Virus genome (UHGV): UHGV-0151410
From: a virus
Length of the DNA: 31,092 nucleotides
Strand: one strand, 5' to 3'
The notes under the pieces are model-generated. The model had not been told where the DNA came from and made no database searches. It saw only the letters and a program-made list of their open reading frames with translations. Positions 16,522-31,092 of the stretch are shown here, one piece after another. A program made the position numbers and the translations under genes. Within the stretch, counting starts at the first letter, position 1, and each line of letters begins with the position of its first letter.

Positions 16522-16800
16522 TGAGGGTGATTTTTACACCTTAAGTGACGCTACTCACATATCCACAGAGTATTTTTATAAACCTTTTTCCATTTTTAAT
16601 CCTTTTTAGATCCTTTTTAGGCGTCGCTGGAGCCAGTAGTGGCGCGGGCTGTAGAGGAGGCTGGTGTAAGATTTGCCCTCAATTAAATACGGTCGGTGTA
16701 AGATTTGCCCTCAGAAGGTGTAAGATTTGCCCTCAAAAGGTGTAGTAATTGCCCTCAAAGTGATGTAAAAATTGCCCTCACCATTTGAAGGATCACACAG
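16522..16800. other. Putative plasmid origin region: one inverted iteron (16522..16540), DnaA box ATATCCACA (16559..16567), phased T-tract AT-rich segment (16581..16620), five direct iterons
   Basis: DnaA-box consensus match, CCTTTTT repeats at ~11-bp phasing, then a direct-repeat array immediately upstream of a Rep_3-type initiator gene. Confidence 0.7.
16663..16780. repeat. Five direct 19-bp iterons (GGTGTAAGATTTGCCCTCA and variants) at ~22-bp spacing
   Basis: Copies start at 16663, 16695, 16717, 16739 and 16762; consensus GGTGTA(A/G)NATTNCCCTCA. Confidence 0.85.
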
Positions 16801-16804
16801 GGTT

Positions 16805-17560
16805 ATGAACAGAGCGGAATTAACAGCAAAAGCCGTCAGCCTGATTGAGTCAGCGACACCTATTAGTCGTAGTTTGGCACAAGCCAATGAGATCACGGAG
16901 GCTGCTTATCACCTGACTCGCGACCAAAAGCGACTGTTGTTTATTGTGGTGGGAAGACTTCGCTATGCTTCTAAGGATGGCGTTCTTGGTTCAGGTGCCT
17001 GTGAGTTGACGGTCAACGAATATGCAGAGATGTATAATTTGCCCTCTGCTGAAGCCAGCAAGGATATTCGTAAGGCCATTTCAGGTCTTAGCGAGAAGAA
17101 AGTTACGATATATAACCCTGATGAATCGACCGAATCAGAAGACAGTTATGAGTCTTATCCCTGGATGATTAAGGATGCCTATTCACCACGTCGCGGGACT
17201 TACATTATTCATCTTAATCCATATCTCATGCCGTTTTTTACTCTGCTTGATAAGAGATTCACAAGGCTGAATTTTACCGAAGTATCTCGCCTTACAAATC
17301 CTTATTCTATGCGGCTTTATGAGTCCTTATGCCAGTACAGGAAGGATGATGGAAGCGGCTTTGCCATACTTGGCGTCGAATGGATGCGGGAGCGTTATGG
17401 GTTACCAAAAAGCTATCAGCGGTATGCCGAATTTAAGAGAAGTTTTTTAACGAAGGCTGTAGCAGAGATTGAAAAAAATACAAAAATGAAAATAGTCTTC
17501 TCAGAGGTGACGGAAGGCGGCAAAGTTACCAGGATAAAATTTACCTATCAGCAGTCTTAA
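16805..17560 (+). CDS. repA: Plasmid replication initiator, Rep_3 (RepA/RepE) family
   Basis: Motifs HLTRDQKRLLFIVV, NEYAEMYNL and NPYSMRLYESL parallel the conserved blocks of pSC101 RepA / F RepE-type initiators; flanked by iterons on both sides. ATG at 16805 preferred over the track's TTG at 16772. Confidence 0.8.
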   Translation: MNRAELTAKAVSLIESATPISRSLAQANEITEAAYHLTRDQKRLLFIVVGRLRYASKDGVLGSGACELTVNEYAEMYNLPSAEASKDIRKAISGLSEKKVTIYNPDESTESEDSYESYPWMIKDAYSPRRGTYIIHLNPYLMPFFTLLDKRFTRLNFTEVSRLTNPYSMRLYESLCQYRKDDGSGFAILGVEWMRERYGLPKSYQRYAEFKRSFLTKAVAEIEKNTKMKIVFSEVTEGGKVTRIKFTYQQS

Positions 17561-26745: not shown

Positions 26746-27549
26746 CTATTGTTCCTTTTTGGTGTTCTTTTGGAGCGCATCGATAACGCCTTGTGGCATG
26801 ATTAAACTGATTGCCGGACTCATTACTGCATCATCCAGTAGAGAACCAGTTAACGTGATGGCGACAGCGTTCTCTAAACCTTTGGTTGCCTGAGTGGTTG
26901 ACGTTTTAATGCGACCTGTAAGGGCTACGACACTCTCACTTGCTGAGTTAATTTCGGAGAGTAAAACTTCGGCGGCTGTCACTGCTTCCCGTAAAGCATC
27001 AATTTCATCCTGAGTAATGACTGGAGCCTGAGCGCCCCCAGCACCACCCTGTCCACCATTGCTATAACCACCAGCACTTCCAGCAGCTTCTATTTTTGCG
27101 TTAATGGCGTTCATGGCGGTTTTCAGAGCATCAAGTTTTAGCGCCGTCAATGCGTCCGTTAGAGATTGCGGAATGGAAACATTCCCCATCCCCTCAACAA
27201 GGGCGAAAGCAGGTATGGGGGTCAGCTCGTTACCTTTTACGTAGCATTCCCAGCCAATCTTCATCTGTAACAGCTCTGATGGCTTGGTGTATGGGGAAAG
27301 AGAATCAGCCAGTAATGAAGACGCTTTGCTGGCCTCATTGAGCTGTTCAGAAAAGCCAAGCAATTGAGTAGTCCAGGCCGAAACAGAATCAGGATAGGTT
27401 TTATCGGCGTGAACTATTCCCTGTATGGCGCTGGCGAGCGATGAGGCTTTTACAGAAGCTGCCCGGCTTATGGTTATAGATTCTGGTGTAGAGATACCGG
27501 CATCTGACAGAATTTTGAAGGCTTTAACTTCACCTATTGAATCAAGCAT
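26746..27549 (-). CDS. Hypothetical baseplate/spike-associated protein (start at Met overlapping the PAAR gene stop)
   Basis: ATG at 27547..27549 overlaps the TAA of the upstream PAAR-like gene by 1 nt; Gly-rich stretch GGYSNGGQGGAGGAQAP. The track's longer ORF (to 27648) runs inside the PAAR gene. Confidence 0.5.
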   Translation of the reverse strand: MLDSIGEVKAFKILSDAGISTPESITISRAASVKASSLASAIQGIVHADKTYPDSVSAWTTQLLGFSEQLNEASKASSLLADSLSPYTKPSELLQMKIGWECYVKGNELTPIPAFALVEGMGNVSIPQSLTDALTALKLDALKTAMNAINAKIEAAGSAGGYSNGGQGGAGGAQAPVITQDEIDALREAVTAAEVLLSEINSASESVVALTGRIKTSTTQATKGLENAVAITLTGSLLDDAVMSPAISLIMPQGVIDALQKNTKKEQ

Positions 27550-27833
27550 TATGCAACCTGAAAAATATCCTCGCCGTTGGCGATAACAGAACCACAAGAA
27601 AGCGGATCGCCCACACAGACAACTCCCTTTCCACCTATCGAAAACCATACTCGCGTCGATACAGCTGCCCCTGGATGTGCACTGTTACCGTCAGTGTGAC
27701 TGGGAAACATGGCACCATCTACAACAATTGGCTTACCGTTAACGGTGAACCAGGGAACAGTTTCAGCTACCAGTCGCGGCGGAAATCCTCCGTGACCAGA
27801 ACAAAGGGTGTCGCTGGTGGCTATTGCGCTCAT
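27549..27833 (-). CDS. PAAR-like repeat protein (baseplate central spike tip)
   Basis: 94 aa with PAAR-type pattern: CSGHGG..., ...NGKPIVVDGAMFPSH..., ...HPGAAVSTRVWF..., ...VGDPLSCGSVIANG.... Confidence 0.7.
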   Translation of the reverse strand: MSAIATSDTLCSGHGGFPPRLVAETVPWFTVNGKPIVVDGAMFPSHTDGNSAHPGAAVSTRVWFSIGGKGVVCVGDPLSCGSVIANGEDIFQVA

Positions 27834-27914
27834 TCTTCACCTCCTGGTTATCCTCCTATTGTCATCACTTTGTTATTTCGTCATTCAAACTGAGAGTTAA
27901 ATTTCGGAATATTT

Positions 27915-28080
27915 TTGTATTCTCAATTCATTCTCAAATAAATCTCACTGTCAGACCATCATTCATTGGGTGATTAAGATATTCTCAAAATGAACTCAAT
28001 AATCACTCTTTTTTTATCTCTTTTGGTGTGGATTTTTAGGTGCTTCTCTATTAAAATTGCATTTTGATTCTCAAATGTGT
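27915..28080. promoter_or_regulatory. parC-like centromere/promoter region with repeated (A/G)TTCTCAA motifs upstream of parM
   Basis: At least four ATTCTCAA copies (27919, 27930, 27981, 28067) plus related TCTCA motifs in an AT-rich region. Confidence 0.55.
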
Positions 28081-28100
28081 CTCAGAAGTGGAGCAAGAAG

Positions 28101-29057
28101 ATGCGCATTTTTATCGATGATGGTTCAACCAATATCAAAATGCTGTGGGAGCACGACGGGGAAACTCGCACTCACATCAGCCCTAACAGCTTTAAGCGCG
28201 GATGGTCAGCAACATTTGGTGCGGGCAAGCCGTTTAACTATGTCATTGACGACGAAAAGTATTCGTATGATTTGATCTCGCCAGATGTTCTGCCGACGAA
28301 TAACGTGGAATGGCAATACAGCCCGCTTAACGTCCTGGCTGTTCACCATGCCCTGCTGACAAGTGGCATTGAGCCGCAGGAAGTAGAAATTGTGGTCACG
28401 CTGCCTCTGGCGGAGTTTTACGACGACGACGCGCAATACAATCTCGATAACATCGAGCGCAAGAAAGCCAGCCTTATGCGCCCCGTCACGCTGAATAAAG
28501 GCAATGTGTTCACGATTAAGAAAGTTACGGTACGCCCGGAGTCTATTCCGGCAGGAATTGGCCTGTGCGACAATCTGAACCCTGCCCATTCTGTTCTTAT
28601 CGTCGATTTGGGTGGAACTACCCTTGATGTTTCAATGGTCGCCGGGCAAATGACGGCAGTTTCCCGTGTTTTTGGCGATTCGAATCTTGGCGTCTCTCTG
28701 GTTACCAGGGAAGTAAGGCAAGCACTTGCCAGAGCCAATACCGAAACGTCAAATTACAATGTCGATCAGCTCATTATTAACCGCCACGATGAAGATTATC
28801 TGAACGACAATATCAATGACCCATCAGCGATTGGTGATGTGAAAAAGGCCATTGCCGCAAGCATTGACCGTCTGCGTACCCGCGTTCTTGATGTGATTGG
28901 CGACTTTAAAGGATATACGCATGTCATGGTGATCGGTGGTGGCGCACCGCTGGTGGCAGATGCAATTCGCGAGCAAGTTAATATTCGTGATGACCGTTTC
29001 TTCGTGGCGGATGACCCGCAACTTGCTCTTGTTCATGGCCTGAAAGCAATCGGTTAA
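28101..29057 (+). CDS. parM: Actin-like plasmid segregation ATPase ParM (StbA)
   Basis: MRIFIDDGSTNIKMLW...ISPNSFKRGW...LAVHHALLTSG...IVDLGGTTLDVS...GYTHVMVIGGGA closely parallels plasmid R1 ParM (MLVFIDDGSTNIKLQW...). ATG at 28101 with SD. Confidence 0.9.
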   Translation: MRIFIDDGSTNIKMLWEHDGETRTHISPNSFKRGWSATFGAGKPFNYVIDDEKYSYDLISPDVLPTNNVEWQYSPLNVLAVHHALLTSGIEPQEVEIVVTLPLAEFYDDDAQYNLDNIERKKASLMRPVTLNKGNVFTIKKVTVRPESIPAGIGLCDNLNPAHSVLIVDLGGTTLDVSMVAGQMTAVSRVFGDSNLGVSLVTREVRQALARANTETSNYNVDQLIINRHDEDYLNDNINDPSAIGDVKKAIAASIDRLRTRVLDVIGDFKGYTHVMVIGGGAPLVADAIREQVNIRDDRFFVADDPQLALVHGLKAIG

Positions 29058-29064
29058 CGAGGTA

Positions 29065-29409
29065 ATGTCCATGTCTCAGGAACGTAAGAAAGTGATGATT
29101 TATCTTCGCCCAGAGGCTTATGCCAATGAAAAGGCGGCGAGCGAGAAGATAAAAAAACATAGCGATATGGCAAGAACCGCATTGTTGGCAGGGCTTGCGC
29201 TGGGAGAAGTCGATAGCAGGCTTCCAGGATTACTGGCTTCCCTGCTGACCGAAGACAATAACCCGGAGCTGATCCGAAAAATGCTGGCATCCTTCCTGGA
29301 ACTACCAGCTGCGGTTGAGGAGCGCCCTGCCTCCATTGAGCCAGTGAAGGAGCAAGTTGTTGCCAAAAGCGCGTCGGCGCGCAATCTGGCTGACTCTCTT
29401 CCTGATTGA
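29065..29409 (+). CDS. parR: ParR-like centromere-binding adaptor (RHH N-terminus)
   Basis: Directly downstream of parM; N-terminal KVMIYLRPEAY...ARTALLAGLALG resembles R1 ParR (…ALTAGLAL…). Start may be the ATG at 29071. Confidence 0.75.
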   Translation: MSMSQERKKVMIYLRPEAYANEKAASEKIKKHSDMARTALLAGLALGEVDSRLPGLLASLLTEDNNPELIRKMLASFLELPAAVEERPASIEPVKEQVVAKSASARNLADSLPD

Positions 29410-29427
29410 CAGAAGATGTGCTGGTTT

Positions 29428-29454
29428 AAGGCTGCAAATTGCAGCCTTTTTTAT
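29428..29454 (+). terminator. Rho-independent terminator after parR
   Basis: AAGGCTGC-AAATT-GCAGCCTT followed by TTTTTTAT. Confidence 0.7.
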
Positions 29455-29461
29455 GCATTAA

Positions 29462-29664
29462 TGGTGTCTAATTGGTGTTAATCTGGAACCAGTTAGGTGC
29501 TGTTATGGTGCAATTTTGTATCTGGTTCCAATTTGGGGCTGATTTCGTGTTAAATAGGATGCAATATAAGGTGTATTTGGTCTGATTGATGTTATACTTT
29601 GCCAAACATTCATGACTCCATTATAGAGCCTGTCCCGCATCAAAAAGGCTCTTATCTGGAACCG
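29462..29664. promoter_or_regulatory. Centromere/operator-like repeat region upstream of parA (TCTGG(A/T)(A/T)CC motifs)
   Basis: TCTGGAACC at 29482 and 29655, TCTGGTTCC at 29521, plus repeated GGTG...TCTGG units. Confidence 0.5.
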
Positions 29665-29696
29665 TTTTGATACCAAAATCACACCGAGGAACGGAT

Positions 29697-30338
29697 ATGA
29701 TTATATTGGTAGCCAGCCAAAAAGGTGGCTGTGGCAAATCAACCACCAGCGTAAATATTTGTGCGGAGCTTGCCCGCGCAAATAAGGACGTAGTTCTACT
29801 TGATGCAGATAAGCAAGGAACATCTGCCCGTTGGGCATCGGACCGTAATGCGGCAGAGGTTTCTCCAGTAATTCATTGCGTCCAGAAGTTTGGGAATATT
29901 CGTGAAACACTTCTTGATCTGGACAAGCGTTATGAATTTGTGGTTGTTGATACCGCTGGTCGTGATAGCAAAGAAATGCGCACCGGTATTACTGCGGCGG
30001 ATGTTTTGCTTGTTCCATTCAGGCCATCTCAGCCAGATTTAGACACTCTGGCGCATTTTGTTGAAGTCTTTGAAGAGGCTTTGGATCTGATGCCTAATCC
30101 TAGCATTAAGGCGTGCGCAGTCTTAACAATGGCCCCATCCAATCCGGTTGTGAATGAAGCCAATGAGGCCAAAGAGTACCTGGCTGAATATCCGCAACTG
30201 AAGTTGCTGAAAACCATCATTCGCGATCGCAAGGTTTACCGCGATTGTATGGCTGAAGGGAAGGGCGTTGTTGAGATGGACAACGGGAAAGCTAAAGGTG
30301 AAATCCAGATGTTGGTTAAGGAGTTATTAAGTGATTAA
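29697..30338 (+). CDS. parA: Small Walker-A partition ATPase (type Ib ParA/ParF-like)
   Basis: MIILVASQKGGCGKSTTSVN... deviant Walker A (KGGxGKS); ~213 aa with no N-terminal HTH; GAGGA SD before the ATG at 29697. Confidence 0.85.
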   Translation: MIILVASQKGGCGKSTTSVNICAELARANKDVVLLDADKQGTSARWASDRNAAEVSPVIHCVQKFGNIRETLLDLDKRYEFVVVDTAGRDSKEMRTGITAADVLLVPFRPSQPDLDTLAHFVEVFEEALDLMPNPSIKACAVLTMAPSNPVVNEANEAKEYLAEYPQLKLLKTIIRDRKVYRDCMAEGKGVVEMDNGKAKGEIQMLVKELLSD

Positions 30339-30618
30339 GCCTCGTAAATCGGTAAAAGCCCCCGAAGTAAAAGACCTCGATCTTGAACGCCGAATTGAGG
30401 CTTTTGCCAGCAAAGCTGATTTGGTGCCGGGTGAGCAACCAGAAGACAACAAAGTGCTCGATAAGGACGCCCCACGTGATTTTAAATCCATTCGTGTTGG
30501 CTTCAATGAATACGAGTACCAGGTACTTGATGCGTTAAGCAAAAAGCATAATCGCAGCAAATTGAATATGATCCGCCATGCTATCCTCATGTTAGCGGAG
30601 TCTGAGGAAGCAAAATAA
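30331..30618 (+). CDS. ParG/ParB-like ribbon-helix-helix centromere-binding protein (partner of the type Ib ParA)
   Basis: 95 aa, GTG start with AAGGAG SD, overlaps the parA stop; C-terminal RHH pattern (IRVGFNEYEYQVLDALSKKHNRSKLNMIRHAILML). Confidence 0.7.
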   Translation: MIKPRKSVKAPEVKDLDLERRIEAFASKADLVPGEQPEDNKVLDKDAPRDFKSIRVGFNEYEYQVLDALSKKHNRSKLNMIRHAILMLAESEEAK

Positions 30619-30659
30619 AGTCTTTCAGGTTGGTTTTAGAACTTAAAAAGTTTTGAACC

Positions 30660-30705
30660 AAAGGTGCACCAATACACCACTAATTTGGTGCACTTTTATA
30701 TCCTT
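30660..30705 (+). terminator. Putative terminator hairpin after the second partition operon
   Basis: AAAGGTGCACCAA ... TTGGTGCACTTT stem-loop followed by TTTTATATCCTTTTT. Confidence 0.5.
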
Positions 30706-30886
30706 TTTGGTACCAATTGTGTACCATTTGTCATTAATTTACTTATGCGCAAAAGTGGGCTTCATGAAAAAGCTCATTATTGAAATAACGATAGAAAGCA
30801 ATTTCTAATCAACTAGTGGTTGTCAGCCTATTCGGCTTATAAGATCATACGCTGTTATACGTTGTTTACGCTTTGAGGAATCCACA

Positions 30887-31092
30887 ATGAGTGAGGCAGA
30901 AGCCCGCCCGACTAACTTTATTCGTCAGATCATCGATGAAGATCTGGCCAGTGGTAAGCACACCACAGTACATACCCGTTTCCCGCCGGAACCAAATGGC
31001 TATCTGCATATTGGTCATGCGAAATCTATCTGCCTGAACTTCGGGATCGCCCAGGACTATAAAGGCCAGTGCAACCTGCGTTTCGACGACAC
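30887..31092 (+). CDS. glnS: Glutaminyl-tRNA synthetase, N-terminal fragment (runs off the window end)
   Basis: [69 protein letters not shown] is the enterobacterial GlnRS N-terminus including the HIGH motif. Confidence 0.95.

Follow-up and report, generated by a model that had tools for sequence, protein, structure and literature searches.

Two putative partition cassettes, of type II and type Ib, arranged in tandem in a D6-like phage-plasmid genome

Background

The type II partition locus parMRC of plasmid R1 has a centromere, parC, that consists of ten 11-bp iterons. Plasmid TP228 encodes the small ATPase ParF (206 aa) and the partner ParG, a ribbon-helix-helix (RHH) protein with a flexible N-terminal tail, and its parH repeat array, which contains tetramer boxes, lies upstream of the operon. 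Phage P1 carries a type Ia parABS locus coding for a ParA of ~400 aa with an N-terminal HTH and a ParB of ~320 aa beside its replicon. Plasmid pB171 combines two partition loci on adjacent DNA, par1 (parMRC, type II) and par2 (parABC, type Ib), with repeat arrays on either side of par2 (parC1 and parC2; PMC4270457). Dual type I and type II systems have also been described on Shigella pINV, where both were functional and deletion of either had little effect (PMC6519299). The present study concerns the 31,092-nt virus genome UHGV-0151410, referred to below in its whole length as the window, in which a type II par operon followed by a type Ib par operon was located on the plus strand between positions 27916 and 30731.

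Sequence similarity identifies the window as a D6-like phage-plasmid. Escherichia phage D6, a tailed phage related to P1, is maintained as a circular plasmid in its prophage state. Its 2017 GenBank record (MF356679) names StbA, StbB and a 'possible ParA', and parA, stbB and parM have been listed as partition functions of a D6-like Salmonella plasmid (PMC6799933, 2019). In D6-like records the next gene, orf61, is a 'hypothetical protein' throughout and no centromere, terminator or RHH protein is annotated. A description as two complete systems was not found in the D6-like records and papers retrieved, a set that did not include the D6 genome paper. D6-like phage-plasmids are frequent in E. coli, Salmonella and Shigella and can carry resistance genes, which makes their stable inheritance of practical relevance.

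Results

Two putative partition operons in a D6-like element

The initial annotation of this region had described an actin-type ParMR pair followed by a Walker-type ParA with an RHH partner. All four genes were located where it had placed them and are co-directional, and their families or folds were confirmed. It had also given each operon an upstream repeat array and a terminator of its own, and both of these features were recovered for both operons as detailed below. We interpret the region as a block for plasmid maintenance by segregation, in which a D6-like phage-plasmid carries two autonomous partition cassettes in tandem, and estimate the probability of this interpretation at about 0.8. 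That both cassettes are genuine partition systems, a function assigned by homology, is considered equally likely. The family and fold assignments of the proteins, the repeat architecture, the terminators, the conservation, the purifying selection and the modularity of the second cassette are directly supported by the analyses presented here.

The ~3.3-kb region from 27800 to 31092 was 96.3% identical to D6 at the DNA level, and the best listed plasmid matches, 98.5-99.8% identical, were non-mobilizable plasmids of ~90 kb from E. coli, Salmonella and Shigella. At least 80% of the region was present in 76 of 5,426 complete E. coli genomes and in 101 PLSDB plasmids, while at least 80% of the parC-parMR segment was found in 113 PLSDB plasmids and at least 80% of the parA cassette in 108. 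Both modules are thus retained in ~110 D6-like plasmids, each a low-copy replicon of roughly 90 kb, and no other partition genes are annotated in D6. Among 50,697 phage records, D6 was the only one in which a ParM homologue and this ParA occurred together. The coordinates of all features are given in Table 1.

The type II cassette

The start of parM was assigned to the ATG at 28101, which is preceded 8 nt upstream by GGAG and agrees with both the D6 annotation and residue 1 of R1 ParM; the mechanical open reading frame (ORF) begins at a GTG at 28077. The protein exceeded the cutoffs of the Pfam families StbA_N (1.8e-69, 233 bits) and ParM_N (3.5e-55, 187 bits) and matched a PHROG family named 'partition protein' (3e-76). 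It aligned with R1 ParM structures over the entire length (E 1e-111; 57% identity as read by eye off the alignment), and the catalytic Asp is kept, D170 of R1 corresponding to D169 in the motif IVDLGGTT. For parR, the ATG at 29071, 14 nt past the parM stop, was favoured over 29065 on the basis of ribosome-binding site (RBS) spacing and the D6 annotation. ParR matched Pfam Plasmid_stab_B (3.5e-11, 43.2 bits against a 25-bit cutoff) and a PHROG partition protein family (9e-60), and its sole solved relative was the pB171 ParR structure 2jd3 (E 1e-6, residues 4-76). A C-terminal tail ending in SLPD is common to this protein and to the Providencia and Enterobacter ParR proteins.

The sequence upstream of parM is a candidate type II centromere. 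Four exact copies of ATTCTCAA, the repeat reported in the initial annotation, were located in the 156 bp of 27919-28074, compared with three in the remaining 31 kb when both strands were counted, and the region showed 11-bp phasing with a lag-11 autocorrelation z of 4.1. The diverged variant L009 retains the TCTCA cores with different spacers, and one additional exact 11-bp unit, TCTCAAATGTG, was observed beside the parM RBS (L009 3504-3780, compared with 28064-28085 of the window), which on sequence grounds is a copy-number polymorphism of the putative parC. Cores that are conserved while spacers drift and unit number varies indicate that these repeats behave as an iteron array. Upstream of related parMR genes in an Enterobacter phage-plasmid and a Providencia plasmid, 11-bp-phased CTCA units were also present (z 3.7 and 5.5). 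The parM promoter is probably located in the region of clusters 2 and 3, either between them or overlapping them.

The parMR operon ends in an intrinsic terminator with 5 GC pairs and a T-run by consensus scan, folding at -16.4 kcal/mol (z -3.1). It was present in all four aligned variants, and its letters are the same in D6, L006 and L009 despite diverging flanks.

The nearest non-phage parMR genes by DNA (66-68% identity) were those of Providencia and Proteus resistance plasmids, where they are located beside a replication gene and without a type Ib cassette. The ParR proteins of these plasmids, among them Providencia rettgeri pYZLc5-3_NDM-1_129k (L035 641-1979), share the C-terminal tail, in the form GSLPD.

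The type Ib cassette and its arrays

The parA gene encodes a small deviant-Walker-A ATPase without an N-terminal DNA-binding domain. It aligned over profile positions 1-203 of the 203 of NCBIfam ParA_partition (NF041546, 2.5e-46) and, at full length, with the ParF/ParA structures 4dzz and 5u1g (3e-18), and it was 45.5% identical to IncK ParA. The SopA and RepA-type NCBIfam models matched weakly and at the P-loop only.

The array upstream of parA had autocorrelation z values of 3.9, 2.7 and 3.2 at lags 11, 22 and 33, and harmonics at lags 22 and 33 were seen on both parA flanks. TCTGG(A/T)(A/T)CC repeats had been proposed as the units of this array. Three exact copies of TCTGGWWCC do lie upstream of parA, all within 29482-29663 and at no other position in the window, but two of them are in the array and the third (29655-29663) is in the 5' leader, and the motif represents only a subset of a longer 11-bp-phased array whose family-wide core is TTGGTRC. 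Tandem Repeats Finder recovered array fragments only, because the units are too degenerate.

A third array, absent from the initial annotation, was found downstream of the 95-aa gene at 30652-30731. It includes four of the 18 exact TTGGTRC copies of the window, inside 51 bp, and had a lag-11 z of 4.0. Its central inverted pair forms a 13-bp stem followed by UUUUAU (-17.6 kcal/mol, z -4.0), a plausible terminator of the second operon, less classical than that of parMR. Downstream arrays were also seen in L009 and in most distant cassettes.

Terminator and RBS aside, TTGATGTTATACT was the sole block of the 287-bp intergenic region that was invariant in all four diverged variants, and the extended -10 element it contains is put forward as the candidate parA promoter. 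The ~95-nt leader from this element to the parA start has, within 29615-29670, a 7-bp stem AGAGCCU...AGGCUCU (-15.2 kcal/mol, z -2.8) just 5' of the third TCTGGAACC copy. The leaders of L006 and L009 have wholly different letters and more GGTRC units.

The 95-aa partner

The partner gene overlaps the parA stop by 8 nt through GTGATTAA and is translationally coupled to parA by this overlap. In its product a basic N-terminal tail (R5) and the conserved helix ERRIExFAxxAD are joined by a linker to a predicted RHH at the C-terminus (about residues 50-92). Used as a query, the 95-aa protein alone returned no match in Pfam, NCBIfam or the PDB, and a word-indexed protein search found relatives at 75% identity or more only. 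An exhaustive HMMER search, by contrast, gave 100 clusters (50% identity) of 55-130-aa proteins. Matches to Pfam RHH families were found among 92 members of this family, chiefly NikA-like (34/92) and RHH_1 (24/92) and also DUF6290, RHH_7 and TraY. The 92-sequence profile aligned weakly with CopG at positions 48-88, and the PHROG search matched residues 53-94 of the partner to an Arc-like repressor (2.4e-4).

A structure model (AlphaFold2, AF2) built from the 92 sequences had a predicted local distance difference test score (pLDDT) of 84.7, exceeding 94 over residues 50-90, where an earlier run with 11 close sequences had been poor (pLDDT 63). The top Foldseek matches of this model in the PDB were all RHH proteins, with CopA_SO first (probability 0.99, root-mean-square deviation 1.8 Å over 43 residues) and ParG fourth over 80 columns, followed by Arc, TacA1, CopG and NikA. 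The model therefore predicts with high confidence that the C-terminus is a ribbon-helix-helix.

Table 1. Features of the two putative partition cassettes (window coordinates)
Feature	Position	Strand	Description and basis
parC-like putative centromere/operator, type II locus	27916-28085	+	11-bp units, (A/T)TCTCA(A/C) core, three clusters
parC-like cluster 1	27916-27948	+	3 units
parC-like cluster 2	27978-27999	+	2 good units, plus 2 degenerate out to 28021
parC-like cluster 3	28064-28085	+	2 units immediately 5' of parM RBS
parM (stbA)	28101-29057	+	Actin-like segregation ATPase, 318 aa; Pfam StbA_N and ParM_N, R1 ParM alignment
parR (stbB)	29071-29409	+	Centromere-binding adaptor (by homology), 112 aa; Pfam Plasmid_stab_B
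Intrinsic terminator, parMR operon	29428-29456	+	9-bp stem 29428-29448 and U-run
Upstream putative centromere/operator array, type Ib (parC1-like)	29459-29584	+	~11 degenerate 11-bp units, consensus roughly ATTTGGTGYTA
Candidate parA promoter	29586-29598	+	Extended -10 (TGtTATACT) within block TTGATGTTATACT; invariant in 4 variants
parA	29697-30338	+	Small deviant-Walker-A partition ATPase (type Ib), 213 aa; KGGCGKST at residues 9-16
parB-like partner (D6 orf61, annotated hypothetical)	30331-30618	+	95 aa, predicted RHH; directly 3' of parA
Downstream TTGGTRC array (parC2-like)	30652-30731	+	Units in both orientations; central inverted pair is the hairpin terminator 30660-30697

The ParA/RHH cassette occurs alone elsewhere

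A locus scan with one genome per species, using a 13-sequence subset of the partner alignment, yielded 22 loci encoding partner relatives. These were from Sodalis, Rahnella, Serratia, Chimaeribacter, Kangiella, Hahella, Kushneria, Nitrotoga, Methylococcales and a 13-kb Marinobacter plasmid. A ParA homologue (57-70% identical to that of the window) was encoded immediately upstream of the partner in 20 of the 22 loci, and ParM or ParR was not found within 4 kb in any of them. The flanks of these distant cassettes, often on both sides, featured GGTACCAA or GCACCAA-type units, commonly at 10-12 bp spacing and amid -10-like elements, and the GGTRC/GYACC core was 4.7-fold denser in the flanks of the 20 parA-partner cassettes than in the rest of the loci. 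Because diverse Gammaproteobacteria carry this cassette by itself with the same motif at its flanks, the comparison identifies it as an autonomous module, and a gene pair with its own flanking repeats has the appearance of a type Ib par module.

Selection and probable exchange among D6-like variants

Ratios of nonsynonymous to synonymous substitution rates (dN/dS) were computed for the window relative to D6, L006 and L009. They ranged from 0.00 to 0.10 for parM and parR (~0.01 for ParM and ~0.1 for ParR) and, where dS was unsaturated, from 0.03 to 0.09 for parA and the partner gene (0.03-0.05 for ParA). The low values in all four genes indicate that purifying selection maintains both systems.

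The two cassettes differed in synonymous divergence, with dS of 0.03-0.12 for the nearly invariant parMR and of 0.15 to more than 1 for parA and the partner gene, which fell into discrete allele classes. In PLSDB the parA cassette was represented by 18 records at 99% identity or more, 66 at 90-95%, 17 at 80-90% and 16 at 60-80%. Discrete parA/partner alleles beside a near-invariant parMR suggest exchange at the level of the cassette, possibly linked to ParA-partner co-evolution or to incompatibility.

Relative to L006 and L009, the nucleotide identity of parA plus partner gene was 76-86% and that of the adjacent parMR 96-99%. The listed PLSDB matches fell at distinct identity levels of about 99-100%, 94%, 88-91% and 77-85%. 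Variation in the partner among D6-like variants is greatest in the N-terminal half, and the RHH has hardly changed.

Three states of the locus were distinguished. In L009, parMR and the parA cassette with its own terminator are followed by dmt without glnS, while in D6 and the window glnS has been added. On the Enterobacter hormaechei phage-plasmid p60214CZ_1, parM and parR are found at the syntenic site, followed directly by dam and rdgC, and parA, the partner gene and glnS are lacking altogether. At another place (L037 5147-8677, NZ_CP085744) this phage-plasmid was observed to encode a P1-type RepB followed by a 401-aa ParA and a 324-aa ParB of the P1 type Ia. The D6 rep gene (orf42) is alone, without par genes beside it, and D6 has no type Ia genes; the window rep gene (262-aa ORF, 16772-17560) is apparently alone too, between tail genes. 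With type Ia genes at RepB in one case and type Ib genes beside parMR in the other, both sub-lineages examined are dual-system and differ in the Walker-type system and its site. Apparently the lineages have exchanged one Walker-type system for another and changed its location.

Neighbouring genes

The gene order of the region is capsid (P1 gene 23), upfB, upfC (PAAR-like), parM, parR, parA, orf61, glnS, dmt methylases, hrdC/rdgC and baseplate genes, so that the par block does adjoin a phage virion module as had been reported, with capsid, upfB and upfC upstream and baseplate genes beyond. A homologue of P1 upfC, next to the par block on its upstream side (27549-27833, minus strand), had a PAAR-motif match that was sub-threshold in Pfam (8e-6, 26.4 bits against a cutoff of 27) and also below cutoff for NCBIfam T6SS_PAAR_dom (2.9e-8), which suggests a tail-spike tip protein.

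Positions 30799-31092 correspond to the phage-plasmid glnS, whose coding sequence runs from 30887 past the window end and is 94-97% identical to E. coli chromosomal glnS. The chromosomal homology begins at ~30799, after the downstream array, and includes ~88 bp of the native glnS upstream region. As it is present in D6 and L006 and absent from L009 and the Enterobacter relative, glnS looks like captured cargo between the par block and dmt. An Rfam scan of the whole window gave no matches, and no meaningful PADLOC match to a defence system was obtained.

Discussion

Proposed mechanism

By homology to R1, ParR dimers would bind along the 11-bp TTCTCA iterons that precede parM, repressing the operon and forming a segrosome that caps ATP-bound ParM filaments, and the growing filaments would push sister prophage plasmids to opposite cell halves. 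In the second cassette, by homology to TP228 ParFGH and pB171 par2, RHH dimers of the 95-aa protein would bind the two TTGGTRC arrays that flank the gene pair, and as the upstream array overlaps the candidate promoter this binding would also autoregulate the operon. ATP hydrolysis by nucleoid-bound ParA dimers may be stimulated by the partner through its flexible basic N-terminus, as suggested by the conserved basic tail (R5) and helix, and a ParA gradient or ratchet would then space the plasmids over the nucleoid (equipositioning). The three 11-bp-phased arrays sit where the centromeres of type II and pB171-par2-type systems sit. The binding to DNA, the location of the promoters, the stimulation of the ATPase and the stabilisation of the element itself are all inferred.

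Alternative explanations

Several points weigh against two working partition systems. Records and papers found on D6-like elements contain no experiment on either locus. The score of ParA (157.8 bits) was under the NCBIfam ParA_partition equivalog cutoff of 180, which places it by profile score in a clade related to NF041546 and not in that equivalog itself. The array upstream of parA is degenerate with few exact repeats, and the promoters are weak, in that a sigma-70 consensus scan found 6 where 5.4 were expected in shuffles, so that promoter positions are offered as candidates. The RHH of the partner is predicted and not solved, and comparison of the partner with the ParB of pMAR7 (pB171-type) gave a BLASTP E of 2.3 over 7 residues; its 92-sequence profile had an hhalign probability of 0.6% with that ParB and of 0.4% with IncK ParB. 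With two systems present, one could also be redundant, as was observed experimentally in pINV (PMC6519299). It is conceivable, though unlikely, that a single cassette is the working system and the other a redundant passenger or a decaying remnant acquired by recombination. The E. hormaechei relative that keeps parMR at the syntenic site without parA, the partner gene and glnS indicates that cassette 2 is dispensable at this locus, and the far greater divergence of parAB than of parMR alleles among D6-like variants (dS 0.4 to above 1, compared with 0.03-0.11) fits cassette exchange. The Enterobacter relative is however not a single-system element, as it has P1-type Ia parAB beside RepB, and pseudogenisation was not seen in the variants examined, in which both cassettes are intact, under strong purifying selection and co-retained in ~110 plasmids.

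A use of the ParA/RHH pair other than plasmid partition, as an RHH regulator with an ATPase for cargo such as glnS, in a lysogeny or exclusion function, or in positioning something else, appears somewhat less probable again. It would be compatible with a partner that is hypothetical in all annotation and has generic RHH similarity only (Arc, CopG, antitoxins), with the sub-cutoff ParA score, and with the many cargos that are positioned by ParA/MinD-family ATPases. It is harder to reconcile with parA and partner genes that are conserved together between repeat arrays in 20 of 22 unrelated loci, the 13-kb Marinobacter plasmid included, with ~11 phased sites, far beyond the needs of an operator, and with closest solved ParA relatives that are plasmid ParF/ParA. 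The pair also lacks a toxin partner and a PADLOC match, and it is present with or without glnS (L009). The initial annotation had itself raised a chromosomal MinD/Soj-type origin for the second pair, which in its present form would mean a gene captured together with glnS. A captured chromosomal gene does lie directly downstream, yet this origin was rejected and is regarded as highly improbable: the homology to the chromosome starts past the downstream array, L009 carries the cassette without glnS, and MinD/Soj proteins match ParA at the P-loop only (about residues 1-50) while its full-length relatives are plasmid ParAs, the best structural relatives being plasmid ParF/ParA and the closest homologues being located on plasmids with a small partner gene.

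Implications

The loosely annotated "partition system" is replaced by a map that can be tested. It contains two separate cassettes, the candidate centromeres as three arrays of defined units, a terminator for each operon, a candidate parA promoter and, for the partner so far recorded as hypothetical, a predicted identity as an RHH protein. A more speculative and, taken as a whole, rather unlikely proposal has two parts: that in this clade ParMR may never work alone, being always paired with a Walker-type system that is itself swapped (Ia in Enterobacter, Ib in D6), and that the 95-aa protein may define an unnamed RHH centromere-binding family (~100 clusters) with a TTGGTRC centromere code. Were this true, the two mechanisms would be non-redundant for the phage-plasmid. 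Pushing by filaments might, for instance, be used at one copy number or growth state and positioning along a nucleoid gradient at another, or the two might be divided between the lysogenic and the induced state. Incompatibility between D6-like elements infecting the same cell could in that case be determined by the fast-diverging parAB alleles.

Comparison with known partition systems

The same locus with the same synteny is present in phage D6 as orf58-orf61 (MF356679; Gilcrease & Casjens 2018), in pYU39_89 and in other D6-like plasmid prophages. The proteins of the window were 99.7% (ParM), 99.1% (ParR), 95.8% (ParA) and 97.9% (partner) identical to those of D6.

The double par locus of pB171, to which the initial annotation had likened the region, was compared through its pMAR7 copy (NC_010862). 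The window has the same pairing of type II with type Ib on adjacent DNA, and the proteins are related (ParM 42.5% identical, ParA 42.6%, and ParR 32% over the N-terminal domain). The type Ib operon of the window also follows the two-sided plan of par2. The likeness does not extend to the layout, since the pB171/pMAR7 operons are divergent and share a central regulatory and centromere region (PMC6519299) while those of the window are in tandem, insulated by a terminator and served by separate arrays. In pMAR7, parR and parM are on the minus strand and parA and parB on the plus strand around a 227-bp central region, whereas all four window genes are on the plus strand. Nor does it extend to the repeat motifs, which differ, or to the partner, which lacks a detectable sequence relation to pB171-type ParB.

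Compared with R1 parMRC, the order of parM and parR is the same and 11-bp iterons again lie upstream of parM, but the parC-like array of the window has fewer and more degenerate units (~7 good) in three clusters. ParR was closer to pB171 StbB than to other solved proteins, and its C-terminal tail is unlike that of R1 ParR. Of the solved ParA proteins, TP228 ParF was the closest (E 3e-18 over the full length), though distant at 69 bits and low identity. ParG matched the partner in fold and not in sequence, and the partner has the architecture of the ParG / pB171-ParB plan. An array upstream of the operon is likewise shared with TP228, the window units being 11-bp-phased TTGGTRC. P1 has the same family and plasmid lifestyle as the window element. 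The distinction drawn earlier from its type Ia parAB holds, as the window encodes a small ParA of 213 aa and a partner of 95 aa, and type Ia genes are absent from the window and from the D6 annotation.

Double loci of type I and type II are already documented in pB171 and pINV, and the window adds no new mechanism to them. For D6-like elements, the present work newly assigns orf61 to a predicted RHH family, defines three arrays with their units as well as the terminators, shows that the type Ib cassette is modular, and finds that relatives alternate between type Ia and type Ib systems.

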